DNA from: Candidatus Zhuqueibacterota bacterium
GTDB taxonomy: Bacteria > Zhuqueibacterota > Zhuqueibacteria > Thermofontimicrobiales > Thermofontimicrobiaceae
Direction: 5' to 3'
DNA length: 64,000 nucleotides
Assembly: GCA_049322915.1 (NCBI GenBank)
Contig: JBMOPW010000021.1
Coordinates: 26,079 to 90,078 of the forward strand
Made by a program: the position numbers and the translations under genes. Below are positions 41,090-64,000 of this stretch, piece after piece. Positions within the stretch are counted from its first letter, which is position 1. The number at the start of each line of letters is the position of its first letter. Under the pieces are notes generated by a model. The model was given only the letters and a program-made list of their open reading frames with translations, was not told where the DNA came from and made no database searches.

Positions 41090-41146
41090 TGTTAAATTTT
41101 TCTATTTTAATGTCTGTATCACTGTATAATTTCATTTTTATTAGTA

Positions 41147-41713: not shown

Positions 41714-41751
41714 CGCCGCACCTCTGAAATTTTCTCAATAATTCGCTTCCG

Positions 41752-42018: not shown

Positions 42019-42125
42019 AAAAAAAATCCCCATTGTAATAAATACAAACAACAATTAGCTGTTGGTATAATATACAACGGGGATTAAAAAAATATAAACA
42101 ATATTAACGTTAATATTCTGTTTTT

Positions 42126-42962: not shown

Positions 42963-43015
42963 GAATTATACTCCTGATTAATTGTTAATTACATCATGCA
43001 TATTTAAAACCCCTC

Positions 43016-45970: not shown

Positions 45971-45981
45971 GCAAAACCCTT

Positions 45982-46182
45982 TTACATTATTGTTCGGATC
46001 ACTTCGATATTATTTCTCAACCATTCATTTACTATTGCCTGCACATCTTTATTTTTATCCTTTGAATATTTTTGGATAAAATCAGCGATGTCAGGTTCTA
46101 AGTAAACAGGTAAATTTAGCTGCGCATTCGCACGGTAAAATTTGCCTCGCTCGCCTTTTGAAAAATCATATTCTTTTTTCAT
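45982..46182 (-). CDS. brnA: BrnA-like antitoxin
   Basis: MKKEYDFSKGERGKFY N-terminus; translationally coupled to brnT. Confidence 0.75.
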   Translation of the reverse strand: MKKEYDFSKGERGKFYRANAQLNLPVYLEPDIADFIQKYSKDKNKDVQAIVNEWLRNNIEVIRTIM

Positions 46183-46481
46183 TATATTTTTTCCTCATAT
46201 TGTTTTCGTTCACTCTTGGTGGCTTTTCGGGCGCTAATAATTCGAACAGTTCGTTGATCTTCGCCTGTTTCCTGGAAGGTGTGAATAATGACTAACAAAA
46301 CATCATTCTTATCCTTACCAAGAGTGATCCAACGATCCTCGATTGCAGAACTGTGCTCTGTATCGTAGATAGAAATTGCGTGAGGATCCAAAAATATTTG
46401 CGCTGCCCGTTCAAAACTCACCTTATGTTTCTGTTTATTTTTAAATGCCTTGATGGGATCCCATTCAAAATTATAGTTCAA
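46182..46481 (-). CDS. brnT: BrnT family toxin
   Basis: FEWD..K...N..KH.VSFE.A, EDRW..LG and RIISARKAT..ER..YE motifs. Confidence 0.92.
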   Translation of the reverse strand: MNYNFEWDPIKAFKNKQKHKVSFERAAQIFLDPHAISIYDTEHSSAIEDRWITLGKDKNDVLLVIIHTFQETGEDQRTVRIISARKATKSERKQYEEKI

Positions 46482-46665
46482 TTTTATCCTCCCTGCCAGG
46501 TCTTATTCAATATAGCAAAAGTAAAAATAAAAACAACTTTTTTATTGAGTAATTTAATTGCTGGCTTCAGGACGTGAATTAAATAACTTTTTATTATAAA
46601 CAGACATTATCAAGCGACTCTCCAAATTTAAGGATCAGAGTAGTAAACTAAATTAATTCACAGTC

Positions 46666-48564
46666 CTAAATCGTCTTAATCAACCCCTTATCCGCCAATC
46701 TCAATTTATCCCGATCCGCAATAGCACTATCCAGACAGATTAAAATATCCTTTTCATTCAAATCCAATTGCCCAATCGTGGCGTCATAAATTTTTTCATC
46801 AAAACAAACCAGCAGCGCATGATCACAAAATTCGCTGGTGACTTTTTGAATTTTATTGGCTTTGAACTGCGCTAATCTTTCAATGCTGCTGTCCAATGGA
46901 AATCCTTCGATCAGCATGGTCTCCGTCAATAATCCCTGCTCCGTCCAGCTTTCTCGCAGCGGCGTCTCAAATTGATCGAATAGCGTTTCTAATTTTTTTG
47001 AATCTGTAGCTTCATAATTGATCCATTCTTTGTAATTGGAAAACTCAAGCCTATAGCTTTTGAAACCTAAGTCTAAAGCTGTTTTTTCATTGGAAAAAAT
47101 ATCGGGGTTCTTTTTTCCTTCTTCTTTTATTTTTTTCACTACTCGACGGATTCGTTCCTTGCCGATTTCAGCAATCGTTTTGTAGCCTGCTTTGTAGGCT
47201 TCGCTTTTTTCATCACATAATTCTGGCAGTTGTACACAAATATATTTTCTCATTCCCCCATCTTGTCCATTTAATTCTAAAGCCGCATGTGCTGTTGGAC
47301 ATGCTCCTGCAAAAAAATCTAGAATAATGTTATTTGTATCTTTTATTACCCCAATACATCTTTGTATAACTCCTAAAGGTTTTGGATATTCAAAATAAAA
47401 TTTTCCATCGAATAATTTTTTTAATTCTCTAATTGCACTTTGAGAGTCACCAACTTCATTCCTTAACCATAAAGTCATTGGAGTAATTGAATCTTTTACT
47501 TCACTCAAAAATCTTTTTATTCTTGGCACATTATTACCTTTTTCACCAAACCAAATTCTATTATCTTTTATAAGTTCATTTAGTTTTTCTTTTGTATATC
47601 TCCAACAATATCCGTTAGGAGGAAAAACATCTCTTCCACTTGGAGTAGTAATGGGATAAATTTTTTCTGGTATTGGTGGACCTACATCAATTCCGCCAGA
47701 AGTCCATTGACCTCTTTTGTCATTGTCAGGATTCTTATATCTTGAAATACTTTTATCATCTCTTTTAAGTCCAAAATCTTCTAATTGGCTTATGCTTTTA
47801 GAATAGCATAATATATAATCATGACTTTCAGAAAAATGTTTTTTAAGATTTATTGGAGAAAATGCTCTTTGCCATACGATTCCAGCAACAAAATTTTCTT
47901 CCCCAAAAATCTCATTCATCATCGCCCGCAGGTTATGCACTTCATTTTCATCAATGGAAACGAAAATCACCCCATCATCCCGCAATAAATTTCTCGCCAA
48001 CCGCAGCCTGGGATACATCATGCTCAACCATTTGGAATGAAACCGCCCATCGGCTTTTTTATTGGTGGTCAATGGCTGTCCTTCCTCATCCACCTGCCCT
48101 GTGCGGCGCAGGTATTCCTGCAGCGGCTCGGTAAAATTATCATCGTACACAAAATCATTGCCCGTGTTGTACGGCGGATCGATGTAAATCATCTTTATTT
48201 TGCCTGCATACGCCTTTTGCAGAATTTTCAGCACTTCCAGGTTTTCGCCCTCAATGAAGATATTGCGGCTGTCGTTTTTTCCGTCGGAATCCGGCGTACC
48301 ATCGGCTTTCAAGCCTTCTCCATACACAGGGACCAGCGTGCCCTTGCTGGGAACCGCCGCCATGCGCCGAGCCTGCCGTTTGCCGGGCCAGAACAGTCCA
48401 AAATGCTCCTGGGCTTCATCGTCTTCCAGGTATTGGCCCAGCGCCTCCTGCAAAACCTCCCAATTGATCTTGCCGTCGGCAAACGCCTCGGGCGCGATCT
48501 TTTTCAATTCATTGATTCGATCTTCATTGAAGGTAAATGATGGTCTTAGTTTTTCGATTGGCAT
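46666..48564 (-). CDS. mod: Type III DNA methyltransferase Mod subunit
   Basis: IEGENLEVLK, IYIDPPYNTG, HSKWLSMMYPRL, YPKP and DFFAG motifs. Confidence 0.95.
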   Translation of the reverse strand: MPIEKLRPSFTFNEDRINELKKIAPEAFADGKINWEVLQEALGQYLEDDEAQEHFGLFWPGKRQARRMAAVPSKGTLVPVYGEGLKADGTPDSDGKNDSRNIFIEGENLEVLKILQKAYAGKIKMIYIDPPYNTGNDFVYDDNFTEPLQEYLRRTGQVDEEGQPLTTNKKADGRFHSKWLSMMYPRLRLARNLLRDDGVIFVSIDENEVHNLRAMMNEIFGEENFVAGIVWQRAFSPINLKKHFSESHDYILCYSKSISQLEDFGLKRDDKSISRYKNPDNDKRGQWTSGGIDVGPPIPEKIYPITTPSGRDVFPPNGYCWRYTKEKLNELIKDNRIWFGEKGNNVPRIKRFLSEVKDSITPMTLWLRNEVGDSQSAIRELKKLFDGKFYFEYPKPLGVIQRCIGVIKDTNNIILDFFAGACPTAHAALELNGQDGGMRKYICVQLPELCDEKSEAYKAGYKTIAEIGKERIRRVVKKIKEEGKKNPDIFSNEKTALDLGFKSYRLEFSNYKEWINYEATDSKKLETLFDQFETPLRESWTEQGLLTETMLIEGFPLDSSIERLAQFKANKIQKVTSEFCDHALLVCFDEKIYDATIGQLDLNEKDILICLDSAIADRDKLRLADKGLIKTI

Positions 48565-48584
48565 TGTTTATTTATCCTATCAAC

Positions 48585-49195
48585 TTTAATTTACAAATAA
48601 TTTATAACTAATTTACAACTAATTGACAATTTATTTATCAACAAGTTAGGTTAAATTTATCACTCATTTTACTTCTAATCAACAAAAATTTACAACTAAT
48701 TTTGGTTATGATTTTCAATGAGTTATCACTGTCTGAATTAAATTTATTAAAAATCTCCCAATTAATCTTATCATCGTCAAACGCTTCAGGAGCGATCTTT
48801 TTCAATTATCTGGTTCGATCTTCATTATAAGGGACATGAATGAAATAACTCCGCCCTTGTCGGATCTCTACTATAATAAAGATCCGCCTAAGGAGGATGT
48901 CCCATTTACAAATGATCCTTGCTCATAGCGAGGCAAGATTACTTTATCAAAAGAGTAACTTAATTAGTTCACAGTCCTAAAAGTGAACGCTGGTCTCAAT
49001 TTTGCGAGGGGCTTGTTATTTATTCATTTTTAAAAAATACCTTAAACTACTTTACAGGTATTTTAAAACTAAAATGCAATTTATTTGTCAATAAGTTATA
49101 GCAAATTTATCATTAATTTTAAAACTAATCTATTGAAATTTAAAAATAATTTTAATGGTAATTTTTAACAAGTTAGCTATGTTTTTAAAACTTGT
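48585..49195. repeat. Two diverged ~150 bp AT-rich blocks with IHF-like sites (about 48590-48740 and 49045-49195)
   Basis: CAATTTATTT(A/G)TCAA(C/T)AAGTTA...AAATTTATCA..ATTTTA...CTAATC is shared by both blocks. TATCAACAAGTTA matches WATCAANNNNTTR. Confidence 0.7.
48751..48829 (-). pseudogene. Relic of a second mod 5' end
   Basis: Translates YNEDRTR*LKKIAPEAFDDDKINWEI, versus FNEDRINELKKIAPEAFADGKINWEV in mod. Confidence 0.85.
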
Positions 49196-49234
49196 CATTG
49201 AACAAAAGAATTATTGAGTAATCAATTGTTTTAT

Positions 49235-50902
49235 TTATTTTATTAAACTCCATTCAGGATATTTCTTTGTTCCTTTATTTTTAATAGTATGGTCCTTTTG
49301 GGACATTTGAGAAAGTAAATTGGCAATTTTTTTCTTCTTTTGTGTTTCATCCAGCGCATCGGATAATTTATTCATCAATAGCTCATCGATATCTGTACGA
49401 TTTGCCGAGTCATATTTTTCTAGATAAGCAATTACCATCTGCTTATAATGAGCGTCATCAAACGCCCTATTTTTAATGTATCTTGTTTTATCTCCGGTGA
49501 TGGATGCGATTTTGGCAGCGACAAATAAATTGGGGTATCTTCCTTCAATCAAATTTTGCCTTTTTAAAATCCTGAATTCATCTTTTGTTAATTGAATTTT
49601 CTTTTGAATTTTATCCAATAAGATCACGATTTTAAGATCAAGATCGGAATGTTGGATTAGCATTCGGGTATAATTTTCATCGATGACTTTTCCAATGATC
49701 TTTACCGTCACTTCATCAGCCCTATCGAGCGTATAGGTAGGCAATGGGAAATATCGGTTCTTTTGCAAGGTAAACATTTTTTTAATTCCGCCGCCTATGG
49801 TATCAATCATATTCAAATGAAACATGGCATTTGCCAGAAACTGATTTCGATAATATTTGGGAGGCCAATCTTGTTCAATAACTGCTTCAATACTGCCAGG
49901 AAGAAAAATTCCTTCATTAGAAAATAACAACTCATCTGACTTTTCAATTACGGTGATTTTGCTCTGTTTCTTATAATCCTGATGGGCGATACAATTATGC
50001 AACGATTCACGAATAACCCAGTTTTCATATTGCGTTAGTTCTATTGGGAACAATGTATTGTCTGGTAGATAACGATATTTCAGATTTCTTATTTTTGTAG
50101 CTATGGCATCTGTATTTAAAATAAGTGGCGGCCCAAAATGGTCATAATCTTTATCTTGATTATTTTCGTCTTTTAGTATCCAGCTTATTCTGGCTATCGC
50201 AGGCAATAAAAAATGCTCTGATTCTTCCTTACCGAGTAAAACAATTGCTGTATTGGTGATTTTGCCCTGCATCGTCACTTTCGCTTTATTAAGAAAAGTT
50301 ATATCGTTCCAATGATCGACTTCCGTTGCAAAATTGGGGAATTTCTTTTTAAATTCAATTCGAGCTTTTTGGATAGCATCCTCATTCAAATCTTTTATCG
50401 TTGCTTTATCACATATTTGGGCTGACCAATCCGCTTGATGCACCTGCCCTCGAATTTGTTCGATTTCCTGGATACTAAGCGCATTCAACGATTCACCTTC
50501 TCTGCCGTAAAAATGACCTTCCCATGACGTAGGAATTCCAGGAGAAGCCGCAGGGATTTGAAACATAATTACTCGTCCTTCAGGCAAATAGAGCGTGTAA
50601 ATTTCATTAAACGTAATTCGGTTATTCGTTTTTTGGGCAATCTCTTCTTTTAGGCTATCCAGGTCTTTTTCATTATCTCGATATTTTGTACCAACGATTT
50701 CTCTGGTTTTATCGTTAATGCCAAAAATCAACCATCCATAATGCTGGTCTTTTAGATTCGCTTCATTGCTTAAAGCAGAGAAGTATTTGCCCAATTCACT
50801 AAAATCGTACTTATTTTTTGCTTCTTTAAATTCAAACCATTCAGTCTCATGCGGCAATGCACGAAGCTGATTTAATAATTTTATTAGCTCTGCTTCTGTC
50901 AT
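49235..50902 (-). CDS. AlbA_2/Schlafen domain plus HATPase_c_4 (RecG C-terminal-like) protein
   Basis: ETEWFEFKEA, SALSN, LIFGI.D, RESLHNCIAHQDY, YRN..LA.AM and IDTIGGGI motifs. Confidence 0.9.
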   Translation of the reverse strand: MTEAELIKLLNQLRALPHETEWFEFKEAKNKYDFSELGKYFSALSNEANLKDQHYGWLIFGINDKTREIVGTKYRDNEKDLDSLKEEIAQKTNNRITFNEIYTLYLPEGRVIMFQIPAASPGIPTSWEGHFYGREGESLNALSIQEIEQIRGQVHQADWSAQICDKATIKDLNEDAIQKARIEFKKKFPNFATEVDHWNDITFLNKAKVTMQGKITNTAIVLLGKEESEHFLLPAIARISWILKDENNQDKDYDHFGPPLILNTDAIATKIRNLKYRYLPDNTLFPIELTQYENWVIRESLHNCIAHQDYKKQSKITVIEKSDELLFSNEGIFLPGSIEAVIEQDWPPKYYRNQFLANAMFHLNMIDTIGGGIKKMFTLQKNRYFPLPTYTLDRADEVTVKIIGKVIDENYTRMLIQHSDLDLKIVILLDKIQKKIQLTKDEFRILKRQNLIEGRYPNLFVAAKIASITGDKTRYIKNRAFDDAHYKQMVIAYLEKYDSANRTDIDELLMNKLSDALDETQKKKKIANLLSQMSQKDHTIKNKGTKKYPEWSLIK

Positions 50903-50929
50903 GGAATTAAATCCCCATCTGCATTTTTT

Positions 50930-51055
50930 TTATTCACTTTCGAATTTTCAAAAATCCAAAGCTTGCAAATTGGCATTCACCCAATCCTCCCGCTCCGCAT
51001 CCGAGCCAAAATCTTCAAAATAAGCCTTCATTCCGATTTTCGATTCACCAATATC
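50930..51055 (-). repeat. Diverged duplicate of the PD-(D/E)XK nuclease 3' end
   Basis: 53 bp are identical between 50979-51031 and 51872-51924; the flanks differ largely at synonymous positions. Confidence 0.92.
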
Positions 51056-51056
51056 T

Positions 51057-51680
51057 TCATTGTGCAATCATCGCCTTAACATAAGCCTGCATCACCGCAT
51101 TAACCTGGCATTGGACAGCATATTCCATTAGTTTGTTAATGTCAACTTCTTTTCGTTTCAGATAATTTTTCAGTGACTCCAGCGCAATATCTTCGCCCAG
51201 CCGATTGCGATAGCGAAACATATCGCTTATGGATTTTTCCTGATTATAGATCCGAACGACACCATGAGCCGTTTTTATTTCTTCAATTCCCAAAAAATAA
51301 AACCTGTCCCGAAAAAAATATTTCCGAATGGGCGGGTATTCGATTTGGGGCAGCTTGGCCGAGTGGCGCAGCGCTACATAAACTTCTGAAGGATTAAACG
51401 TAGTCAATTCATAATATTCCAGCGCCGAAAGCAGGCAGATGACCCCAGTCGGCACCGCTTGGCACACATCAATAAAGCTTATTGGAATACCATTCGCTTG
51501 CGGCAAATCTGCCATACGGTAAAGCCCTGGCTTGATCTTCTCCAATACGCCTTCAAGAACCAAACGAGCAATATCCCTGGTATGCACCGCAGCCTGCTTC
51601 AATTCTTTGGTCCGTGCAAAGCCACCGTGCGCTTTAAAAATTGAAATTATTCTGTCATCTTTGTTCATTTCTTCTGCCAA
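51057..51680 (-). CDS. abiEi: Type IV TA AbiEi family antitoxin (no adjacent AbiEii)
   Basis: HGGFART.EL, G.LEKIKPGLY, GVICLLSAL.YYELTT and IYN.EKSI.DMFRYRN motifs. Confidence 0.9.
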   Translation of the reverse strand: MAEEMNKDDRIISIFKAHGGFARTKELKQAAVHTRDIARLVLEGVLEKIKPGLYRMADLPQANGIPISFIDVCQAVPTGVICLLSALEYYELTTFNPSEVYVALRHSAKLPQIEYPPIRKYFFRDRFYFLGIEEIKTAHGVVRIYNQEKSISDMFRYRNRLGEDIALESLKNYLKRKEVDINKLMEYAVQCQVNAVMQAYVKAMIAQ

Positions 51681-51726
51681 TTTATGTAATTGGCGGTAAT
51701 ATAGAACAAATTAGGTTTCGATGCAA
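51675..51726 (-). promoter_or_regulatory. abiEi promoter and operator-like inverted repeat
   Basis: Minus strand TTGCAT-N17-TATATT followed by GCCAATT-N5-AATTGGC. Confidence 0.6.
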
Positions 51727-51822
51727 GTTGTTTTTGTGCCTAAATTAAAATCTATTCCATCTCAATTTGTATTCCGATTCGCTTTTGATACTAATGAATT
51801 ATTGAAAAATTTTGGTCATTGT

Positions 51823-52647
51823 CTATTCCTTTTCAAATTTCTCAAAATCCGTCCCCTGCAAATTCGCATTGACCCAATCCTCCCGCTCCGCATCCGAGCC
51901 AAAATCTTCAAAATAAGCCTTCATGGCGCTTCTCGATTCAGCAATGTATTCAAGATACGATTGGCAGGAGAATCGGGCGTCGCAGTTGCGACAAACATGG
52001 GAGCCAAAGTCTCGTTTCGTGCCAGGCACAGGTTCTTTCAATTTTTCAACTGGCGCAGGCTGGAATTGTTTCGCCTCAATCGCATCCACGACTTTGCCGA
52101 AATCGGCAATCGTTTCCGCCACTTTTTCTTTTTTAAATGGAATTCTTACCAACGGCTGCCAGCGGGACAGCTCATGCTGGATTCGGATCGGAATATTCTC
52201 TTGAATTGCATGCTTTAATGAATTGGGCAATGCTGTGGAAATTATAGCCGTGTGATCCAGCTTTTCGCCCCGCAATTGCTGCCAGATAAAAGCATAAATA
52301 TCAAGCTGCTTTTCATAATACTCGATATTTTTTTGGATATATTCAAGGTCGTGGGTTTTAATATCGTACATCCAGGTTTCATCATCTTCCCTGACAATAT
52401 CGACAATTCCTTGAATCGTAAAACTTCTACCCTTTGCTGTTTTTTGATCGGGCAATGTCAATTTAACTTCGGTCTCTGTCACCCGCTCCGCCACATCTTT
52501 CATACGCTTGTAATAATAGATGATCTGATTGAGCGCCATCTGTTTCGTCGCATCGGTCATCGTATGTCCCCCTTCCAGCCGCAGCATCTCGTAATTCAAT
52601 TCAAAAAACTCCCTGATCCGCTCAATGACTTTTTCCTCTTTCAACAT
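51823..52647 (-). CDS. PD-(D/E)XK (RecB/AddB/Cas4-like) nuclease
   Basis: E..L, GIVDIV, YDIKT, QL.IY and C-terminal CRNCDARFSC motifs. Start may be 52647 or 52692. Confidence 0.88.
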   Translation of the reverse strand: MLKEEKVIERIREFFELNYEMLRLEGGHTMTDATKQMALNQIIYYYKRMKDVAERVTETEVKLTLPDQKTAKGRSFTIQGIVDIVREDDETWMYDIKTHDLEYIQKNIEYYEKQLDIYAFIWQQLRGEKLDHTAIISTALPNSLKHAIQENIPIRIQHELSRWQPLVRIPFKKEKVAETIADFGKVVDAIEAKQFQPAPVEKLKEPVPGTKRDFGSHVCRNCDARFSCQSYLEYIAESRSAMKAYFEDFGSDAEREDWVNANLQGTDFEKFEKE

Positions 52648-52736
52648 CTTTCTTTCACCAATTTTATTCCACCATTCCATATCCTCAATCACCCAACGGA
52701 ACGTCCGCCAATTTTTAAGGCGGATTATCCATTTAC

Positions 52737-55322
52737 CTAATCACCCAATTTCCCACCAACTCTCCGCTCATCAATGAGCAGATAATGCAAATCCTCAATC
52801 GTCTGATGCACCAGGCTGCCAAAAAACATGGTCTGGGAGCGGGAAGGAACGAAGCCATATTTTTTGAATAGCATGTAGCTTCTGGGACACTGCAAATAGC
52901 CCAGGTAATCGCCCGTGTACGAATAGGTTCTACCCCGGTCTTCATCTGCAATCTGAAAATCAGGCAACAGATCGATATCGAAATCCTGCAACGTTGGCAG
53001 CTTTAATTCCCGCAATATCGTTTTAAACGGTTCTGATGTCCGCTGACCCCGCCCCTGGAAATGCGGAATGATGGTTAAATGTTTTGCCCGTGACAGCGCC
53101 ACATAGAACATGCGCATATTATCAAAATGGCTGATTCGATCCAGTGGCTCGCCCTCTTTTTTCAGCAAATCCCGCATAATCACTTCGACCATATCCGCAT
53201 CCCGTTCGGTTTTGAATACGCTGCCCAGCACCACGATGGGAAATTCCAGTCCTTTCGCCTGATGGATGGTCAGAAACGGCACCCTGCCTTTGGGAAAAGG
53301 GTCATCGACATACTCATGTTCCGATTCACCCAGCCGAAATAATGCATACGTAAATGAAGAAAAGAAGGCATGGATAAATTTGTTTTCAAACAGAAACGCT
53401 GCCGTGATCATTGGCGTCCGATCTTCCATAAACCTGACCAAATATTGCGTGATCAATCCCAGGTTACACACAGGTCCTTCGTCAATCCCTTCCTCAGCCA
53501 GGCGATAGCAATTTCTGAAATACTTGAATGCATTGAGCTGATAAAATAAATCCAGAATCGACCAATCCACCGAAGTGACCCGATTGATGATATATTCCAA
53601 CGAGTAAGGCTTGCCTGATTTTTCCTTCCGCTGGATCGCTTGAGAAAAATAATGACTTCCCAATGTTTTTTTGGTTTTTGCTGAAAGACCTGCAATATTG
53701 GCTAAGCTCCGAAGCCATTCTTGCTTGAAAGCATATTTGAGATTCCATTTTTTCCGCTCAACAAAATCAATCAGCTTTTCATAATCCGCCACAATCGTTG
53801 CAATCTCCCTTTGCTTATCGCTGATAAAATCTGCCAGCGCTTTATCCTCTGCAATCAGTTGCTCCGCTCTGGCAATACATTCCAGCGTCCAGTTTCTGAA
53901 TTGTTGCAAGCCCCGACTGGCAGCCCCCTGATGGCTTGGTCTGCCAAATATTTTGAAGAATAGCCCATAAACTACGATTGCTTCTTCCACTTCTAAAAAC
54001 CTTCCCGCCCGTGGCGCATAAACAGGAATGCCCAGTTTTTCCAATGCCGCCTTAAATCCTTGAACTCGAACACTTTCTTTCAGATAAGGAAATAGAAACG
54101 CCACCTGGTTATAATCTTCGATTTTACTTTTTTCTTTTAATTGCTGAACAAAACGAGCCACCTGCTCATAAATCTCGTCAGGACTGTTTGCCCCTGTTGA
54201 AATAACGGCTGGAATTTCTTCTTGATTATGCGATTCAATTTTTTTATTCTGGACCCGATAAAATCCCTTGCCATCTTTTTTTGACCAATCGGTTCGTTCA
54301 ATAAAATCCGTATAAAATTCCACGATTTTTTTCTTTGACCGATAATTGATATTCAAGTCTATTCGCCTGGGTTGAGCCTGTAAATACTTTACACAACGAT
54401 TCTCAAACTCAACCAGATTCTCGACGGTAGCGCCTCGAAACCGATACAGCGCCTGATCATCATCACCAACCACACAAATATTTTTGGACTTCTTTGCCAA
54501 CTCAAAAAACAACTTCTCCTGAATCGTATTGGTATCCTGGTATTCATCGATAATGATATGCTTAAAAACATCCTGGCAACCTTTAAAAACACAAATTGTA
54601 GTGTATGCCTGCTGTTGCAGCAAGGAGAAATCAACCGAGCCAATTCCATTGCCCGAGCTCTTCAATGAATATTTATAAAAATCATACATCGTCAACAATG
54701 CTTCAAGCGTTTCATGGTTGGGATTTACTGTCCCAGGCATCACGCATTCTTCGGAAAATCGATTGAATAGTTTAATCACATTCAAAACGGCTTCATGTCT
54801 GGAATAGTGGTCGTTCCCGGAAAAATACTGATTAATGGCACGCTGTGCCGTTTCCTCATCATCCTGCCCAGCAGCTTTAAGCAAATCAATCCAGAAACCA
54901 CGATTATAGATTTTGAAATATTGAGATAACTCATCCAGTAAAATTGGAGCTTTACGTCTCGATGAATGGGGGGCAAATCTGCGGTCGCTCAAAATTTTCT
55001 GGCAAATGGAATGTACTGTTCCAATGGACATCCTGGCGATATCGTAAGGCTTGCCCGTCTCATTGGTCACCAGCCCAAGTAGACTTCGCAATCCTTCCTT
55101 CAATTGTAAGGCAGCTTTCTCCGTAAACGTGCTGAGAAAAATTTCTTCTGGCTTGATATCATGAAACACAATCAAATTCAGCGTCCGCCACAATAACACC
55201 CGTGTCTTTCCCGATCCAGGTCCCGCCGTCAGAAACAGCGGTCCCTCCACATGAAGAATTGCATCCCTTTGTTTTTGATTCGGCTGGAATTTTTTGATTT
55301 GCCAGAGCTGTTCGATAGTCAT
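52737..55322 (-). CDS. UvrD/PcrA-like SF1 helicase ending in the N-terminal piece of a PD-(D/E)XK_1 domain
   Basis: AGPGSGKT, TFTEKAA, IDEYQDTN, VGDDDQ..YRFRGA, NYRS, TIHQAKGLEF and FYVALSRA motifs; tail YSYT....YLQCPR.Y......FGSLVH..IE. Confidence 0.92.
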   Translation of the reverse strand: MTIEQLWQIKKFQPNQKQRDAILHVEGPLFLTAGPGSGKTRVLLWRTLNLIVFHDIKPEEIFLSTFTEKAALQLKEGLRSLLGLVTNETGKPYDIARMSIGTVHSICQKILSDRRFAPHSSRRKAPILLDELSQYFKIYNRGFWIDLLKAAGQDDEETAQRAINQYFSGNDHYSRHEAVLNVIKLFNRFSEECVMPGTVNPNHETLEALLTMYDFYKYSLKSSGNGIGSVDFSLLQQQAYTTICVFKGCQDVFKHIIIDEYQDTNTIQEKLFFELAKKSKNICVVGDDDQALYRFRGATVENLVEFENRCVKYLQAQPRRIDLNINYRSKKKIVEFYTDFIERTDWSKKDGKGFYRVQNKKIESHNQEEIPAVISTGANSPDEIYEQVARFVQQLKEKSKIEDYNQVAFLFPYLKESVRVQGFKAALEKLGIPVYAPRAGRFLEVEEAIVVYGLFFKIFGRPSHQGAASRGLQQFRNWTLECIARAEQLIAEDKALADFISDKQREIATIVADYEKLIDFVERKKWNLKYAFKQEWLRSLANIAGLSAKTKKTLGSHYFSQAIQRKEKSGKPYSLEYIINRVTSVDWSILDLFYQLNAFKYFRNCYRLAEEGIDEGPVCNLGLITQYLVRFMEDRTPMITAAFLFENKFIHAFFSSFTYALFRLGESEHEYVDDPFPKGRVPFLTIHQAKGLEFPIVVLGSVFKTERDADMVEVIMRDLLKKEGEPLDRISHFDNMRMFYVALSRAKHLTIIPHFQGRGQRTSEPFKTILRELKLPTLQDFDIDLLPDFQIADEDRGRTYSYTGDYLGYLQCPRSYMLFKKYGFVPSRSQTMFFGSLVHQTIEDLHYLLIDERRVGGKLGD

Positions 55323-55447: not shown

Positions 55448-57229
55448 TTATAAAATGCGTTTTTTTGCTAATTCATCTTTTAATATATTTGATTTTGGAC
55501 ACTCTTTTACAATATCCCATAATTGTAGCCATTCTTCTTTTTGCCAACAAGGATATGCATCTACTTTGATAAGTGAAATCAAGAAATCAAGGAATTCATC
55601 AGTTTCTCGATGTGCAAACTTTACTTTTGTAAGGTCATCAGCAAAAGTACCAACATGTTCAATCTTTTCTGGCGAAAAATCTATAGCTAATCTAACAGCC
55701 TTCTTAAAAATGCCATAGGAAAAGGGAATTAATCGCCAGAAATCAATTCTTAAATCATTTCCGTCTGGTAAACTGAAAAAACCTTGTTGTGTTGACCATT
55801 TCCAATAAGGCAAAAGCACTTGCTGCCAAATCTGCTCAGCTAATGCCGCATTTGCATTTTTAAGTTTATCTTCCCAAGCATCTATTAATAATCTTCTCCC
55901 ATTTTGATCGATTAAGCTTGATATTAGATAAAGATTTTCAAGTTTTGTTTTCTGCACCCAAAAAATATAAGCATTATGATAAATAAACCCGTTTCTTACT
56001 TGTTCATTGAATTGATCATATTGATTTACTATCTTCAAATAAGTATCATCGTATAGCTTAATAATCTCTTTTGATAATACGTTACTCCAAAGGTAACCTG
56101 TCCATGCCAAAAGATTTTGTTCAGTTACTTCTTCTGATAGAAAAAGCGGTAATAGTTTGTTAATAGTCCACTCAGGTTCAACCGCTTCAAACCAACTTAG
56201 GTATTGCGTGGTGAGACAAAGTCCGTAACGAGAACCTTTGTTATAATTATTGATGATATATTCAAAAAAATCTAATAGATTCCAAGGAATTACTAAATGT
56301 TCCTCGTTCTTTCTCTTTTCATTAACGATTTTCATTGCATATTTTAAATAAATTTGAGTCATTGTACCAAAAGGATGATTAAGAGCATCTGTCATCCAAT
56401 CCGTTCTTGAATTTATCCCCCTCCTATCAAAATCAAAGTCTGTAAATATATCACGACACAATTTATAAAATTCAGGCCAATCATCAGGATTTTTATCACG
56501 AATATCGTACCATCTTTCGAGGAGTGTTGGTATACTATGCCAGAATTTGCCTTCTGGGCGGCTTTTCATTAATACCGCTAATATCTCAATAAACTCTTCT
56601 ATTTGGCTATTTTCCCATTTGATCTCTTTTTTTTCTAAATCTGGTCTCAAATCCCAAATGATAGGATTCATAATATCATCAGGAAAATCTTTTAATTTTG
56701 ATTTGATTTTATTAAATAATGTTTTACAGAAGTTGAAGTCATTAGAACATCGATATCCAACTCTTCCCGCATATTCATATAAATCATGACTGGAAACATT
56801 TTTTAATTGTAGCAGAAAATCAAGAATCTCATCTGGATTCATTGAGTTAATATCTTTATCCTGTGATAGCCCATATTTGTATTCTGTTTTATTTTTTTTA
56901 AAATTTTCTTTCTTCCATTCTGGGTGTCTTTTTAGTATATCTTGAAATTTCAGTTCGGACTCATTTGGGATTTTATATTTTGCAGCCTTTAATTCACTTA
57001 ATGTGTCATAGATTATATACTCATAAAATTCATCAGTTTCTTTTTCTTCAGTACCAACTTCAATTTCCTTTGATAATCCTAAGTTGATTTTAGAAAGAAG
57101 CTTTTCTCTTAATTCAGGATATCTTTCAAACGCTTGTTTAAAGAGTTCTTTTGCTTCTTGATGAGTTTCTAAATCCCAGAAAAGATTATCTGTGAATAAT
57201 ATATCTATTATCTCTTGTTTATTTAACAT
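55448..57229 (-). CDS. Helical protein resembling the C-terminal half (DUF4020-like) of DSR1-type sirtuin defence proteins
   Basis: W...T..E, DWMTDALNHPFG, WT...LLPLF and AW.GYLW patterns; overlaps the SIR2 ORF by 11 nt. Confidence 0.65.
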   Translation of the reverse strand: MLNKQEIIDILFTDNLFWDLETHQEAKELFKQAFERYPELREKLLSKINLGLSKEIEVGTEEKETDEFYEYIIYDTLSELKAAKYKIPNESELKFQDILKRHPEWKKENFKKNKTEYKYGLSQDKDINSMNPDEILDFLLQLKNVSSHDLYEYAGRVGYRCSNDFNFCKTLFNKIKSKLKDFPDDIMNPIIWDLRPDLEKKEIKWENSQIEEFIEILAVLMKSRPEGKFWHSIPTLLERWYDIRDKNPDDWPEFYKLCRDIFTDFDFDRRGINSRTDWMTDALNHPFGTMTQIYLKYAMKIVNEKRKNEEHLVIPWNLLDFFEYIINNYNKGSRYGLCLTTQYLSWFEAVEPEWTINKLLPLFLSEEVTEQNLLAWTGYLWSNVLSKEIIKLYDDTYLKIVNQYDQFNEQVRNGFIYHNAYIFWVQKTKLENLYLISSLIDQNGRRLLIDAWEDKLKNANAALAEQIWQQVLLPYWKWSTQQGFFSLPDGNDLRIDFWRLIPFSYGIFKKAVRLAIDFSPEKIEHVGTFADDLTKVKFAHRETDEFLDFLISLIKVDAYPCWQKEEWLQLWDIVKECPKSNILKDELAKKRIL

Positions 57230-59120
57230 AACCGCCTTCTATCAGTTTTTTCAAAGCAAAAATACTAAGTCGCTTAAAGTATGGATCCTTAATTTGCTGC
57301 CACATTTGATAAACTAAAATTGCTTTTTCTACATTCAGTTCTATTAGGATTTTCCATACTTCTACAATGGTGTCTATAACAAGATCAATTGCAGTATGGG
57401 AATAAGTTTCGCCGACTTCAATATTAGGCCTTCTGATGTAAGTATACGATCGTGGTTTAAAACGTTCTAGAGTAATCTGAAAGTCTCTTAATTTGTTTGT
57501 CAGATGAACAAGAAGTTGATATCCCAATCTTGTGACATTTGGCTTGAAAAATCGTTCATAGTATTCTTTGAAATAGTAATCCTGCATTTGTCCAATATAT
57601 TCTACTTCTGCTTCAATTTTAGATGTTATCTCTTTATCATCACCTGTTTCTTCTGCATAGATTGATTCAAATGACCTTCTAATTTTAATTTCAACTTTCA
57701 AAATTGAGATAAGTAGCCATATAGCATCATCATAAAGATTAAATTCAATTAGTAGCTTAAAGAAATTTTCCATTCTATGAAAATAAAGAGCATTTTTATT
57801 ATTTTGAATAGAAACTTTGAATAGCTCTACTATTTTCCTCAAATCGTATTTCATAATATTTAAATTGTCTTTATCTAATAGCCTGGAAAATGTATCGAAT
57901 AAAATTGGATGCATAGTTTCATGAAAGGGAGATAATTTTAAAATCCATTTATCAACATCGCTTATAATAAATCCAATTATCTTTTCTGCTAAGAAATAGT
58001 CAAGTTCTTTTAAATTCTCATGTTGTTTTAGTATATTTTCTAAATAGCCTCGGCTAAGAAATATATCAAACCAACCTTCATGCAAATCAAATTGTGCAAA
58101 ATCACGTAGTAATTCTGGAGTTTTGAAATATAGTAACGCACGTGTATATTTATCATTAGGTAGTTCGGTCGGATTACTTTTTGCAATTTCTGATAACACA
58201 TTTCGACGATCGATAAATCCCCTTCTATTATCTTCTCCCCATGCAACAAGAGTTCTCTCTAAGGCTCTATGGTCTATCTTTCTTTTAATTTTTTTAATTG
58301 GATAAAAAATTGGATAAACACCACGACGTCTCCAATCTAACTCAATCTCATTAATATTATCTTCTTTAGGAATCAACGCCCACTTCGGTTTAATATCTTT
58401 CGCACCTTGCGATTTTGAGCCTTCAAGTGCAAGTGATAAGTATCTTAAAGGGGGATCGTTTAAGCTGTATCCAATGAATAAGATAGCGTAGTGCTTAAAT
58501 AACTCGTGTGCAAATTTTAAAGCCCATCCTTCATCCATATAGGCTCTGCCAATATCTTTATCAGATAATATCATTTCTTCTGGATTTGAAACATGTCCAT
58601 GTAAATAGCCTATCCCCTTAAATCTTATGGCTGGTGGAAAGGAGGGTGCTTCATGAATTACCCATTTTTCATTGTTTAAATATTCCGATTCATCAATAGC
58701 ACGATTTAATAAGTTATCAAAATTTGTCGTTATAATCCGTGGTGTTGATTCTCTTGGGAAAAGATTTACTATTGCTTTGTGTAGTACTATTCGCTTTCGT
58801 TGCTCATCTTTACTTAGTATTTCAGCAGCAGTTTGATGAATAGGCTTATGTTGATCGTTCCATATTCCTAAAACTTGATCGTACAATTTTCTATTAAATA
58901 GTTTTTTTTCATTATCATTAGTTTTTATAGCCAGCTTTTCTTGAATTTGATTGCATAGTTCTTTAAATGTTGGATAAAAAGTATTGGGTCTTTGTTGTGG
59001 ATCAGCTCTTGTAGAAATCCCAGCTCCAACAAAAATGACGAGTTCATCCTTCGATAAAGCATTTATCAAATCAATTGGCAAGCCAACATTATCTTCTGTG
59101 TAAGTAACGGTGTTTAGCAT
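57219..59120 (-). CDS. SIR2-domain NADase, DSR1-like N-terminal half
   Basis: LVIFVGAGIS, IITTNFD, YLHG, D.GRAY..EGWA..F and LFIGYSLNDP motifs. Confidence 0.88.
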   Translation of the reverse strand: MLNTVTYTEDNVGLPIDLINALSKDELVIFVGAGISTRADPQQRPNTFYPTFKELCNQIQEKLAIKTNDNEKKLFNRKLYDQVLGIWNDQHKPIHQTAAEILSKDEQRKRIVLHKAIVNLFPRESTPRIITTNFDNLLNRAIDESEYLNNEKWVIHEAPSFPPAIRFKGIGYLHGHVSNPEEMILSDKDIGRAYMDEGWALKFAHELFKHYAILFIGYSLNDPPLRYLSLALEGSKSQGAKDIKPKWALIPKEDNINEIELDWRRRGVYPIFYPIKKIKRKIDHRALERTLVAWGEDNRRGFIDRRNVLSEIAKSNPTELPNDKYTRALLYFKTPELLRDFAQFDLHEGWFDIFLSRGYLENILKQHENLKELDYFLAEKIIGFIISDVDKWILKLSPFHETMHPILFDTFSRLLDKDNLNIMKYDLRKIVELFKVSIQNNKNALYFHRMENFFKLLIEFNLYDDAIWLLISILKVEIKIRRSFESIYAEETGDDKEITSKIEAEVEYIGQMQDYYFKEYYERFFKPNVTRLGYQLLVHLTNKLRDFQITLERFKPRSYTYIRRPNIEVGETYSHTAIDLVIDTIVEVWKILIELNVEKAILVYQMWQQIKDPYFKRLSIFALKKLIEGGYVK

Positions 59121-59761
59121 TGTTTTTTCAGTAAGTTAAACTGCAAAATATTTTTTTAATTGAATTTAGTGATACTTTTCACCATAATTATTTTTCTACC
59201 TCTTTTACTATAATAATAAATACTTTTGTAACATCTTCAAAAGAGAAATAACAAAGAAAAAAATGTTGTGGTTCCAATTTTTTTTAAAAGGAAAAAGTAC
59301 AAAATGTCTATTATAAATGCCAATAAGGTAACAATTTTTTCAAACATATCCGCAGGGAAAGTATAAGTAGGTTTATAAATTGCATGTTATCAGGAATTAA
59401 ATGTATATTGTTTTTACTAAATAATAATAATACAATGAGATTATAACCAGGAAGAATAGGTATGAAAAAAAGAGTATATCTAATAGCTTTATCAAACAAT
59501 CCGATCAATTAATAATTTATAAGAAATATACTAAAATGAAATTATGAATTCAACAAATAAATATTAGTGTTTTGCAATATATTATTATATTACCGTAACA
59601 AATTAATTATAGTTCTCATATTTAAATTACGGTTTTTCAAAATTCAATATATTTCAATTCAATTTTATCATTTCAAATTTAAGCTTGATTTTTTAACTCA
59701 TATTGGTTAACTTTTGTACAGTAATTCAATAAGGTATTTAAAATCACAACGGAGAGAAAAC

Positions 59762-59983
59762 ATGGATTGCAAAAACGGCTTCCACAGAATAAGAGTTGTT
59801 AAGGACCGCGGCGATATCTATTATACCATTTGCGTGAACTGTGGAGAGAGAAAATCATGGAAAAGAAATCTGAACGCCATTGAAGACCTTGCATGGATTA
59901 AAAATTTGAAAGCCAAATCAGGCTATACAAAAATCCCTTTGCTTGGCATGAATTATTACAGGGACACACCAGCCGCCAATTAA
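59762..59983 (+). CDS. Small basic Zn-ribbon-like protein (73 aa)
   Basis: GGAGAG RBS; C-x4-H...CxxC (MDCKNGFH...ICVNCG). Confidence 0.6.
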   Translation: MDCKNGFHRIRVVKDRGDIYYTICVNCGERKSWKRNLNAIEDLAWIKNLKAKSGYTKIPLLGMNYYRDTPAAN

Positions 59984-60014
59984 AACATAGTTGCCTGAAA
60001 TCTGTAAAATAAAG

Positions 60015-60618
60015 CAACCAGCGGCATCATTCAAAAAAACAGCAGGAAGCCGAGCACGTGAGAAACGTTTTTTTGATTCATGCCTTAGTACATCACCTGA
60101 CCTTTTATGCAGATTGTCACTGTAGGAACAAAAACATCCTATTGCATAGCATGTTTTTGTCTTATTCCATTGTATAACTATCGGGATATTCCTGGCGCGT
60201 TTACCAACATAAGGATCAAAACGATCCCCATCAGCCTGACAGTTATCCGAAGTGCAGAGAACCAACCAGCGGCATCATTCAGAAAAACAGCAGGAAGCCA
60301 AGCGAGAAGAATCGTTTTTCAGAATCATGCCTTGGCACAATATCAAACAAAGGTGCACATTATTACTGAAGGATTAAAAACATAAAGCTGTAAAAAGCAC
60401 AGCTTAATGTTTTTATCTTTCTGAATCAGATTTCTTTCAGGTGAAGTAAATTTTAAAAAAGGAAGACAAATAAAAACCGACCATACGCCACGAGAACGCT
60501 AACCTCTTTTTGGTCATTCGGTAAAACAGGAAAGCAACACATCTTCCAGGAACGCTCCAGCCTGCTCAGAAAAACAGCGCGAAGCCCAGCAGGTGAGAAT
60601 GTTTTCCTGCATCAGGCT
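60015..60618. repeat. Three dispersed ~60 nt hairpin repeats plus two secondary hairpins (structured non-coding region)
   Basis: A1 60023-60084, A2 60271-60331 and A3 60559-60618 share a loop (AACAGC..GAAGCC.AGC...AGAA). B1 60128-60160 and B2 60375-60415 share an AAAAACAT/ATGTTTTT stem. Confidence 0.85.
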
Positions 60619-60909
60619 TCCGCGTCCTTCCAGATGTTATCGGGAATGGATACAACTCAAAATCAGCCAACACCAACCATCCGCGCATTATGGAACGTGA
60701 GGAGAAGAAATTACGCTCATCATCGTTCGGCGGCAATAAGGTGGCCTCCCAACAACCCAGCATCCCAACCCAACAGGTCTTTCCGCTCCCAACACAACCC
60801 CACACAACCCATCGCTCTACCCGCCCTCAGTCCCGCCGCCTCTCGTTGTTTCGCTGCATTTCTTTAATGTCCATTTATAACGTGACGTTATATCATTTAT
60901 TAGTAATTT

Positions 60910-63875
60910 TTATGATGAATTTTTGATATAACTTATGACACCTGCTTCTTTATTAATTATATTCAATTCAAAGTTTTCAATAATTTTGATATGGACTTTT
61001 TGAAGCAAATTTCTTGTAGCATCTTCATCAGATAATAAAGTCCCATCCTTATCTTTCTTTAACTCAACATTTGTTTTAATAAATTCGATTGCCATCTCTT
61101 TGGTGACGGATTTAATAAACATGTCGAATTTTTTATTAAAAAACTTATCACTAATAAATTGTTTCATGTTGCAATAATTTTTAAGATTGAAAACACCGAT
61201 AGTATTTTCATATTCATAACTTAAAAATATTGGTGTATTTTCTAATAATCCGATTTGTTCACGAAATTTAGGTTTTGGTGACATTTTCCAATTAGGAATG
61301 AATAAATGAGAATTAGCTAATTTTTTATGGTACGACCATTCATGTGGTATAAATATAATATTAGGCGAAAATTCATTTTTCTTTTTAAATAAATCAATCA
61401 GTTCAAGTATACTTTCAAGGATAGGAGGATTTTCCAAATTGTTATTTATATCTTTATGTACTGATGCATATTTAAATAATTCACTAAATATTCTTACATT
61501 TTCATAATTGCCAATTCCCTGTCCATAAGCTTGACCCCATCCGCTAAAAGAGTCGTCATTATCAACAAAAGCACCTTTTACATCTAATTGATTAAAACCA
61601 AACCATTCACTTTTTAGTTTTTCACCATTATAAGGAATTTCTTCATAATTTGAATAGCTTGATAATATATAATGTCCAATACAGTTATTTTCCCATGAAT
61701 TTTTGAAGTTACTCTTAAAATCTTCAATTTTTATTTTACTCAATTCTTTTTCGATCAATTTATTTTCTTTTAGTAAATCATGTCTTTCTAGTAATTTTTT
61801 ATTAAATGAAAGAAATTGATCTATTCGATTTTCAATGTCCGTTTTATCTGTTTCACTTGATCTAATTTCATTGCCTGATATCTTATTAGCTTTTTTTACG
61901 GCGATTATTTCAGCCCATTGATATAAATTTTCCTTAATTTGAGTACATATATGTTCAATTCTTTCGTATCTAAATTCTGAAAATGATTTCGATTCTTGGA
62001 TTTTATCGAAATTATCAGGAAATTTACCGATTGAAATTCCTTTAATACAGTAATACCAAGGTAGCCAACTATCAGAAGAAATTGGAGTATAAGTTTTACC
62101 TTCAGGTGGTTCGTCTAACTCAAAATTTCTCCAATTAAATCCATAATTCCTATCTTCAGATATAGCAGTCGAATATAAATTTGTCAATTCAATGATATTT
62201 TCAAATGCACCATTAGAAATTGAATAAAATTGAATTAAGTGCCCTTTTTGAAGGTGTTTTGGATGATCTTTATTAATTTGATATAAAAAAATCATCCATG
62301 AATTGATAGCAAATGAAATATATTTTTTATCTTCGTGCTTTTTATTGACTATATCCTTCGTTGTTTTGATTTTATTCAGCTCATTTTCAATATTAGTAAT
62401 ATCATTATTGTTCTCTTTTGCTTCATTTAACTTCAGTTTAAGTTCAAATTCTTTATTATCATAATAGTGATAATTACGATCCAAGTATTTGAAAAAATCC
62501 ATTAATTCATTATATGCATGTTCAAAGAACTTAAAGTCTTTATTCTCGATTGACATTATAAGATATGTTTGAAAAACTAAATAAATTTCTAATGTATATT
62601 TATTTAGTTCGATAATTCGAGAATCATTTTCAGATTTTTCAAATTCTTTTTGCAACCTAAATTGCACAAATTCTTTTAACCATCCAACGCATCTATCTTT
62701 TATAAACTCCGTTTGAATTTGCTCATCTTGATGAACTACTTTAGAGTATATATAAGGATAAAAGTATAATAATCTTGAGAATGTAAAAATAACATTTGAT
62801 TGAAATGAAAGCAAAATAATTCTTAAAGGGAAATATCCAACTTCAGTAAAAATTTCTTGCATACCTGTTCGCAATGTTTCATCGATGATATGGTATAAAT
62901 CTCGTACTATTTTCTCATAGGGCTTCCAATTATTGAATAGACCTTGAGTATTATTCAGTAATTGAAATATTTTCATCTCTTCAATAAAAGATGATATTAC
63001 TGAATAATAAATATTCAAATAATCATCCAGCTCTTCTGGATTTCTATTATTTATAATATTTCGTATCGCAACCTTAAATTCATCAAATTCACTCTCATCA
63101 AAAGAAAAAGGTTCTGTTTTTTTTACTTTGAATGAGTGATTTAATAATCGAATAATTTTTTTAACTGGAAGATCCTTTGGTGCAGCTAATATATTTCGAT
63201 CAGAAATATAATCACCTATAGCAAAACTATTTAATCTTACTCTTTTCAATTCATTTGTGTCGTGATTGAGATAACGATTTATTTTTGCAAGCTTTTTAAT
63301 ATTGATATCATAGATATATCCCCTTTTTTTTATTGAATAATCTTTAATATCATCACTCTTTGAATTTAATCCAAATAAGTAGCCACTCTCTACATCATAC
63401 TCCTTAAAATAATCATTAAAAATATTTTGACTAAGACGTTTATTTACTTCATATTCAATTGCTTGTTTACTCTGTTTAATTATCCATTTTATTCTTTGGT
63501 CTTTAAGATAATCTGTACTCAAAATTTTGTACACAATATGATAAAACCATCCAATGCCCAAAATAGTTATTGTAAAGGATAGGCTTAATATAATTAGACA
63601 TTTTTCAAAATAATCATTTTGGTTGAATAAAATTATATATGCTGGGATAAGTAGGTTGATTAAGGAAAAGATTATTATGGGGTATAAATAGGATACCCTA
63701 AAAAAAAGAAAAAAAATGTTCTGACTACTAATCTTTTGTCCAATGGAATTCATCAAAAATAGTACAACTGTAATTGCAATCGCTAAAATGGCGGCATATA
63801 TTTCCCATAAAGTTGTAAGATTGGATAATAAGTTATCATTATTAAATGAAATATTTTTATGCAGAAAATTTGAAA
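60910..63875 (-). CDS. Large membrane protein (DUF2254-like TM region, helical middle, putative HK97-fold C-terminus); 5' end cut off by an IS
   Basis: Three TM segments near the N-terminus. The ORF-track start (63963) lies inside IS sequence, so native coding resumes at 63875. Confidence 0.7.
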
Positions 63876-64000
63876 TGTCAAGGGCAATCATATTCCCCAC
63901 TAGCGGGGCAAACATATTCCCCACCTGCACAGGTGGTTTAGCGTTAATATAAAAAGCCTGCAAATTAGAGTCAAGCGTTTTGCAATTTGGGCTTAAATTT
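63876..64000. mobile_element. IS21-family terminal inverted repeat; element continues beyond the window
   Basis: Begins TGTCAAGGGCAATCATATTCCCCAC-TAGCG-GGGCAAACATATTCCCCAC: a 5'-TG end with tandem ~19 bp transposase-binding repeats typical of IS21 ends. Confidence 0.75.

Follow-up and report, generated by a model that had tools for sequence, protein, structure and literature searches.

We analysed a 64,000-nt stretch of contig JBMOPW010000021.1 from a Candidatus Zhuqueibacterota bacterium (referred to below as the window) and describe a gene close to its end, on the minus strand at 60910–63875. The gene encodes a membrane protein with a C-terminal domain that, according to predicted structures, has the HK97 fold of phage capsids and encapsulins; this assignment is well supported, far beyond chance. 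In the window copy a repeat element has cut off the 5' end, and this copy is probably impaired; the main finding is the unnamed family to which it belongs. This family may represent an unexplored, possibly new kind of anti-phage gene. We propose that its members are accessories of the abortive-infection type, in which the capsid-like module would engage the phage head-assembly machinery and the membrane module would then compromise the membrane. We give this reading a probability of about 45%.

The initial annotation, made from the sequence of the window, had suggested that about 280 C-terminal residues resemble an HK97/encapsulin shell protein. We modelled residues 705–1017 with AlphaFold2 using 97 sequences and no templates. 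The model (m45754e57ccfb) reached a predicted local distance difference test (pLDDT) score of 95.2 and a predicted template modelling (pTM) score of 0.90. When it was compared with 48,161 representative chains by VIA-align, the best match was T4 gp24 (1yue_A; Z 14.5, 226 residues aligned, 3.7 Å), followed by HK97 gp5 (1ohg_A; Z 14.1), the Pyrococcus furiosus virus-like particle (2e0z_A; Z 13.7), encapsulins 7bcv_A and 9i8e_C (Z 13.6) and 6x8m_A (Z 13.1). The first eight rows covered Z 14.5–13.0, with 196–226 residues aligned at 3.0–3.8 Å. A score of Z≥8 was obtained with 78 chains, and the best 50 of these 78 were all HK97-fold proteins (capsid, encapsulin, gene transfer agent or phage-related).

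Foldseek, of which VIA-align is independent, returned 152 matches to the Protein Data Bank (PDB) at E≤1e-3 for the domain model, the best with an E-value of 2e-7. Against predicted viral structures, 27 matches were obtained at E≤1e-3 and the best named ones were major capsid proteins. The full-length protein was modelled from an 85-sequence family alignment, also without templates (pLDDT 88.0, pTM 0.79). VIA-align gave the same picture of an HK97 fold with this model (Z 14.4), and Foldseek gave 25 PDB matches at E≤1e-3 with HK97-fold capsids on top, such as that of phage DEV (E 9.8e-5). The template modelling scores, normalised to the target, were 0.60 for HK97 prohead II and 0.59 for the P. 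furiosus particle. Residues 36–309 of the domain model aligned to residues 10–266 of the 266 residues of encapsulin 7bcv_A. Because nearly all of 7bcv_A is covered, the whole fold is present rather than a sub-motif.

By the structural definition of the HK97 fold, the C-terminal domain as predicted is therefore an HK97-fold domain. A predicted structure had been fixed beforehand as the check on this claim, and the claim was not refuted. A language-model feature search of the ESM Atlas with residues 715–1017 gave a weak lead in the same direction: the clusters shown, several of them capsids or encapsulins, scored 0.80–0.81, with an SrpI-like cluster at 0.80.

The elements of the domain follow each other as in the HK97 fold, with an E-loop-like beta-hairpin (residues 772–777 and 788–795) that precedes a spine-like helix of 24 residues (809–832). 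The motif GWGQ...FSEL (residues 808–829) lies inside this helix; ILELIDLF is found at 852–859, PNIIFIP at 867–873, IGLLENTPIFLS at 904–915 and VHIK...GVI at 990–1010. The initial annotation had placed all of these motifs correctly. The tools give aligned ranges and no superpositions, so the attribution of single motifs to an A- or P-domain follows from the order of elements and is provisional. K796, directly behind the hairpin, is invariant in 85 of 85 sequences, and E821 in the spine-like helix is kept in 79 of them. Other highly conserved residues are G905, G814, F749, W611, W556 and Q935.

The HK97-like domain occupies residues 743–1017 (60913–61737, minus strand as for all parts of the protein; alpha/beta part 743–1012) and was delimited with the domain model, VIA-align and Foldseek. 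The architecture in front of it was read from the predicted structures with DSSP and, for the membrane part, from hydropathy. Three transmembrane helices remain in the window copy (residues ~49–141, 63541–63819; hydropathy segments 52–70, 95–113 and 122–140, helical in the AlphaFold2 model), and full-length relatives have two more upstream. They are followed by a membrane-proximal stalk helix (150–188) and a small alpha/beta domain (192–281), together at 63121–63516, by an all-alpha helical-repeat domain (291–690, 61894–63093) and by a connecting helix of 32 residues (707–738, 61750–61845). In the full-length model the membrane and stalk helices are long and extend up to residue 188. The transmembrane helices had thus been annotated correctly. 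What had been described as a long helical linker consists of the helical-repeat domain of ~400 residues and the small alpha/beta domain.

We refer to the transmembrane helices, stalk and small alpha/beta domain as the N-module and to the helical-repeat and HK97-like domains as the C-module. Across the family, whose proteins have ~1050 residues, the N-module contains 4–5 membrane helices. Two classes of relatives indicate that the protein is a fusion of these separable modules. Many short relatives of 714–727 aa begin with a methionine right where the helical domain has its first helix and so consist of the C-module, and the N-module exists alone in separate proteins, such as P0146 (387 aa), which matches only residues 42–286 of the query. 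Unnamed ESM Atlas clusters of 287–392 aa score 0.93 against the N-module, and DUF2254 scores 0.84. A metagenome scan for the short class yielded two short loci only, both without upstream context. A crude positive-inside count placed the C-module in the cytoplasm in 73 of 84 scorable long relatives (1000–1220 aa), with nine opposite and two tied, which suggests a cytoplasmic C-module.

The similarity of the N-module to DUF2254 (PF10011) concerns its membrane helices and small alpha/beta domain. It was weak, with 23.7–25.5 bits in three of 36 relatives, all below the Pfam cut-off of 28.8 bits, and no match in the query; the family is thus not counted as DUF2254. As the function of DUF2254 is unknown, this link names no activity for the N-module. 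No enzymatic domain was detected in the query by Pfam, PADLOC, NCBIfam or PHROGs, nor in 36 relatives by Pfam, so that the membrane module is the sole remaining candidate for an effector. The helical-repeat domain matched designed helical repeats only (7rdr_A, E 2.3e-13 in a profile search of PDB sequences; 8gel_A, Z 11.0 by VIA-align). Apart from these designed proteins, the profile search of PDB sequences returned only chance matches to membrane proteins.

A word-indexed search found a single close relative, P0003 (869 aa, 81% identity). The exhaustive HMMER search returned 362 representatives at E≤1e-3, 189 at E≤1e-10 and 27 at E≤1e-30, most of them 1000–1150 aa long and colinear with the query over its whole length. 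Ten relatives that we looked up all fell into single-member clusters without informative names. Fourteen loci from reference genomes belong to Patescibacteria/CPR (candidate phyla radiation), Gammaproteobacteria, Cloacimonadota, Verrucomicrobia, Spirochaetes and Scalindua. Among 167 genomes of the window's own phylum, the family was detected in only one, that of the window itself; among 401 sampled genomes from the phylum of G167, the genome that holds locus L015, it was detected in three. The G+C content of the gene is 25.8%, compared with 49.4% in the glycoside-hydrolase-rich core of the window and 37.6% in the rest of the island in which the gene lies. Sporadic spread together with foreign G+C content is the pattern of rare, horizontally moving cargo. 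A tblastn search with P0019 of 50,697 phage records gave no homologue, as did two scans of viral contigs, the sensitivity of which was limited by the search patterns; tblastn with P0022 against plasmids gave no match.

Three observations concern single members. P0003 is labelled as part of a Candidatus Lokiarchaeota metagenome-assembled genome and lies on a 6.6-kb contig, while the window is bacterial; either a recent transfer between domains or a mis-binned contig would account for this. At two loci, L018 (2292–5778) and L025 (30–2917), the family gene is broken into two overlapping open reading frames (ORFs) of 569 and 598 aa and of 772 and 199 aa, respectively. These are probably frameshifts, and they suggest frequent decay of the gene. 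At L033 (G226:C2:201000-220900), the ORF at 10118–11698 (minus strand) encodes a variant of 526 aa, the match of which to the family profile is confined to the capsid-fold part (positions 654–1016, E 1.8e-52). Two same-strand genes of no known family (429 and 271 aa) are found upstream of it and an IS200-like transposase downstream. This variant may be a differently assembled or multi-gene form, and a profile comparison of the family with the two upstream genes gave no similarity.

We examined the genomic context at 13 loci with usable upstream sequence. Loci L013, L023 and L025 lacked such sequence; L025 is moreover a duplicate of L024, and L029 and L015 represent a single locus. Neighbouring ORFs were called by a simple script; 136 and a further 38 were scanned with Pfam and 48 with PADLOC. 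Same-strand restriction-modification (R-M) genes were found upstream in 9 of the 13 loci, with the family gene last or near-last in the row (no matched random control). In three rows the family gene follows type I genes: hsdR-hsdM-hsdS-gene in L015; hsdM-hsdS-gene in L016, where the genes overlap and a HEPN-like gene, HerA, NurA and a methylase follow; and hsdR-RhuM-hsdMS-gene in L022, followed by PDC-M19A/B. L014 has a type I R fragment, RadC and the gene. A methylase and a type II restriction endonuclease (REase; E 9e-127) precede the gene in L019, an EcoRI-type methylase in L020, and a PglX-like methylase and two unknown genes in L021. The row RadC-REase-Dcm-Vsr-unknown gene-gene was found in L024, with a retron-like reverse transcriptase (RT) downstream. 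In L032 the order is type III res-Bro-N-mod-gene, followed by a GIY-YIG/DUF4357 gene (PDC-S14).

The PADLOC matches among the neighbours were REase_II (9e-127), PDC-S05, PDC-M19A/B, PDC-S13, PDC-S14, HerA and the retron-like RT. Types I, II and III are all represented among the partner R-M systems, so that the gene is not bound to a single R-M mechanism. By its recurrent linkage to defence genes in unrelated genomes, as seen within one subfamily, it counts as a defence-island gene. Housekeeping surroundings of the homologues had been named as the alternative outcome, and the nine loci with R-M genes and the PADLOC matches among further neighbours do not resemble such surroundings. No portal, terminase or prohead protease gene was found among the neighbours in the window or in the loci of relatives.

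Our proposal is that the family gene, which typically rides as the last gene of R-M operons, serves there as an anti-phage accessory. The C-module, with its helical-repeat domain and capsid fold, would be the sensor. It would engage a component of phage head assembly, either the major capsid protein or a protein that binds it, such as the scaffold, prohead protease, portal or decoration protein. The N-module would be the effector and would disturb the membrane once the sensor is engaged, and the outcome would be an abortive-infection backstop behind restriction. We infer all three parts of this proposal, the defence role, the capsid-related trigger and the membrane effect. If the defence role is true, the family would use a sensor principle undescribed in bacteria, in which like recognises like or a mimic is built in. 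The hypothesis is directly testable, as each intact homologue is encoded by one gene.

The HK97 fold is known from the capsids of tailed viruses and, in cells, from encapsulin shells. Compared with the phage HK97-fold capsids HK97 gp5 and T4 gp24, residues 743–1017 show the same order of hairpin, long helix and alpha/beta core (Z 14.1–14.5, ~200–226 residues aligned, 3.5–3.7 Å), but the identity is only 8–12% and the family has no match to a capsid family of Pfam. Unlike phage capsid genes, the family gene lies outside head-morphogenesis modules, both in the window and in the examined loci, and tblastn with P0019 gave no homologue in the phage records; its domain is fused behind ~740 residues of membrane and helical domains. 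Judged by sequence family and by position in a head module, it is thus not a phage major capsid protein.

Encapsulins of families 1 and 2 and the P. furiosus virus-like particle are cellular, non-viral HK97-fold proteins, and their structural similarity to the family is as high as that of phage capsids. The family differs from them in having no Pfam match to Linocin_M18 or SrpI-like proteins, so that it is not assigned to the encapsulins. Its membrane anchor and long helical domain also set it apart, and its neighbours are R-M and defence genes. Neither in the window nor in the loci was a cargo gene found beside it (the search did not extend to targeting peptides), so that the encapsulin hallmark of a neighbouring cargo is likewise absent there. 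The accessible text of a 2022 review (PMC8987985) mentions encapsulins as the only recruitment of the HK97 fold. In the accessible part of an encapsulin survey (PMC8346489), fusions and family 3 shells with inserted transmembrane helices are described, and no architecture like that of the family. Full-text literature searches, as far as the indexed texts extend, gave no publication on proteins of defence islands that combine a membrane anchor with an HK97 fold. A widespread membrane protein with a terminal HK97 fold that travels with R-M operons would be a second, quite different cellular recruitment of the capsid fold.

The proposal can be sharpened, tentatively and with more doubt, to a prokaryotic capsid-derived restriction factor. 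The membrane-tethered HK97-fold domain would then join the phage capsid-assembly machinery, or be displaced by it, and the membrane would fail, which would provide a portable second line behind R-M operons. Fv1, enJS56A1 and Ty1 p22 are eukaryotic capsid-derived restriction factors, in which a capsid-type domain kept by the host interferes with how the capsids of an incoming virus assemble or function. The concept would be the same, with the function in our family hypothetical. The differences are that these factors have the retroviral Gag fold and not the HK97 fold, belong to another domain of life and have no membrane effector. Such a function would give the HK97 fold its first role in cells beyond that of a closed shell, and bacteria would have a counterpart to the restriction factors derived from Gag.

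Several results weigh against the abortive-infection reading. In the query, no capsid family of Pfam was matched at E≤0.1, and none in 36 relatives at E≤0.01; PHROGs gave no capsid match for the query, and the family profile found no capsid among PDB sequences. As no sequence-level link to capsid families was found, the domain may be of viral descent or may go back to an ancient shared fold. Pfam and PADLOC-DB v2 returned zero families each for the query at E≤0.1 and NCBIfam returned no match, so that the protein is also missing from the defence systems in PADLOC. The helical and membrane parts of the full-length model gave no informative structural match by VIA-align. The context loci all belong to one subfamily (28–39% identical to P0019), the one that yielded usable search patterns. 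Four of the 13 loci (L017, L018, L026 and L033) have no upstream R-M gene and instead show recombinases, unknown genes or, in L026, a BatA-D operon after which the family gene sits. Linkage to R-M genes could likewise be expected if the protein helped to maintain or regulate the R-M systems. Finally, among the listed sequencing runs that hold the stretch, none is on record as RNA.

The capsid-like domain might instead be a built-in pseudo-ligand, which we consider unlikely. The helical-repeat domain would then be the real sensor and would hold the protein's own capsid-like domain until a phage capsid protein displaces this mimic and frees the membrane effector. The helical-repeat and HK97-like domains always occur together, also in the class of 714–727 aa, and the fairly high pTM of the full-length model suggests a fixed domain arrangement; both would suit a mimic held in place. 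Sensing of phage capsid proteins has known parallels. CapRel and Lit sense the phage major capsid protein by other sensors. To our knowledge, none of Avs7/8/10, Dsr1, CapRel and Lit has been reported to contain a capsid-fold domain. According to the accessible text of PMC13581612, the tetratricopeptide-repeat (TPR)/alpha-solenoid sensors of Avs7/8/10 wrap around HK97-fold capsid proteins, and EcDsr1 detects phage capsid proteins. By analogy, a helical-repeat domain might envelop an HK97-fold partner within the same protein.

All of these capsid-sensing proteins would share with the family its proposed class of trigger, the HK97-fold proteins of head assembly. They differ from it in their TPR-like or other sensors and in their nuclease, NADase, tRNA-directed or protease effectors; in the family, it is the host protein itself that carries the capsid fold, and no enzymatic effector was detected. 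Against a pseudo-ligand, the contact between the helical and HK97-like domains is an assumption, the helical region resembles designed repeats only, and a profile comparison of the family, including this region, with two Dsr1-like proteins encoded next to it in the window gave no similarity.

A role outside immunity is improbable in our view. The HK97-like domains could self-assemble into a membrane-tethered lattice, ring or partial shell with a structural or cargo function, as an unusual membrane-bound relative of encapsulins or as part of the machinery of a mobile element. HK97-fold proteins are known to self-assemble, the fold is as near to encapsulins (Z 13.6–13.7) as to phage capsids (Z 14.1–14.5), and the four loci without an upstream R-M gene would be less of a puzzle. 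An encapsulin-like function is opposed by the lack of any cargo-type gene (ferritin-like, peroxidase or desulfurase) beside the examined loci and of an encapsulin match in Pfam, and a membrane-anchored extension of 740 residues per subunit would make a closed shell unlikely. The sporadic spread and the tail position in R-M operons of types I, II and III are typical of defence cargo.

We see little chance that the protein serves the R-M system itself, as an addiction or stabilisation toxin, a membrane tether or a regulator of the R-M complex, and does not sense phage capsids at all. Its gene is co-directional with R-M genes, often overlapping or abutting them, and takes the last position in L015, L016, L022 and L032, as would be expected of such an accessory. 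The partner systems, however, belong to types that are not related to each other (type I, type II, type III and Dcm-Vsr-MutH-like), the copy of the window and some others have no R-M operon next to them, and a partner-independent module better fits an autonomous function. It is very improbable that the capsid-like fold is an artefact of the modelling and that the C-terminal domain folds in another way: the fold does rest on AlphaFold2 predictions and lacks a sequence-level match to capsid families, but two independent template-free runs with 85 and 97 sequences gave the same domain (pLDDT 88 and 95.2), three search methods returned HK97-fold chains only, and the language-model feature search also points, weakly, to capsid and encapsulin clusters.

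The window copy of the gene lies in an open frame at 60910–63963 (minus strand), which encodes 1017 aa from a TTG codon and 1029 aa up to the edge of the window, with no internal stop. The surviving gene body, 60910–63875, comprises residues ~30–1017 and the stop codon. Its 988 codons are intact and colinear with full-length relatives. The remaining 125 nt (63876–64000) match the starts of two other contigs of this genome, C14 and C11, with 100% identity, and beyond them the sequences diverge completely. In X1, the run from which the assembly probably derives, these 125 nt belong to a unitig of 1799 nt with a depth of 335.9, compared with 50.6 for the unitig of the gene, and three other unitigs with depths of 46–68 join the same end. 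The identity to other contig ends and the high depth identify 63876–64000 as the terminus of a multi-copy element of the size of an insertion sequence (IS), inside which both the window and its contig (C21) end. The first 29 'residues' of the frame are thus read-through from this element, and the real coding sequence is 60910–63875, with the upper boundary exactly where the initial annotation had set it.

P0004 (1083 aa, 36% identity) aligns with its residues 93–1079 to residues 30–1010 of the query and carries two further hydrophobic helices upstream of the aligned part. From this alignment, ~90 N-terminal residues including two membrane helices are missing from the window copy. A search for this N-terminal piece elsewhere in the same genome assembly returned only the known copy and a match at chance level (E 0.34). 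The suggestion that an IS had probably disabled the gene is borne out in so far as a multi-copy element replaces this N-terminal part. Departures of the query from the family consensus at I469, F614, H764, N926, A552 and V391 were considered as marks of decay and rejected. At every one of these positions the consensus residue is absent from P0003 and/or P0004 as well, so that the departures are subfamily traits.

Within the repeat end, an 18-nt motif occurs as a direct repeat and there is a palindrome of 16 nt; the depth of its unitig is ~6.6 times that of the gene. The transposase of the element was not seen. One copy of it, on C14, lies ~400 nt from a dnaA-like gene. Unitigs of 183 nt that match the repeat end were found in unrelated soil and biofilm runs.

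The family gene is located at the far end of a low-G+C island that starts at a tRNA-Met gene (37772–37845), behind which the G+C content falls from 49% to 38%. The first part of the island (37772–55322) has genes for a primase (CHC2 finger) and for AAA_25 and further encodes a type III R-M system (res 43016–45970, mod 46666–48564), Schlafen/AlbA_2 (49235–50902), AbiEi (51057–51680), a PD-(D/E)XK protein (51823–52692) and a UvrD helicase with a C-terminal nuclease-like tail (52737–55322) that gave RTasHel and GajB-like matches in PADLOC. No integrase was noted among the scanned ORFs of this part. The annotated defence-island setting was borne out by these genes together with a Dsr1-like pair.

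This pair is a Dsr1-like protein split into two overlapping ORFs on the minus strand (55448–59120). The SIR2 half (57219–59120, 633 aa) matched Dsr1 of PADLOC with an E-value of 7e-49 and the C-terminal half (55448–57229, 593 aa) with 2.5e-16; their NCBIfam scores of 196 and 95 bits lie far under the equivalog cut-off of 1400. By analogy with EcDsr1, a capsid sensor may thus be encoded 1.8 kb from the capsid-fold protein.

Between the Dsr1-like genes and a repeat region, an ORF of 89 aa (59714–59983, plus strand) encodes two cysteine pairs with zinc-ribbon-like spacing and gave no family match above noise. The adjoining intergenic region (59990–60620) has a G+C content of 44% amid flanks of 26%. 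It contains three copies of a ~70-nt unit, 248 and 287 nt apart, each of which holds an 18-bp stem (for example 60023–60040 with 60067–84), and two further hairpins at 60128–60160 and 60375–60415. An Rfam search of this region gave no credible family. A 150-nt part of it has a 72% identical copy on contig C2.

Two features lie apart from the island. In the core of the window, among glycoside-hydrolase genes, a 1709-aa protein (21226–26355, minus strand) combines superfamily-1 helicase domains (AAA_11/AAA_12) with a restriction-endonuclease-like domain (MTES_1575) at its C-terminus. An Acido-Lenti-1 small RNA (Rfam RF01687) was found at 487–532 on the minus strand, with 39.2 bits at a cut-off of 37.

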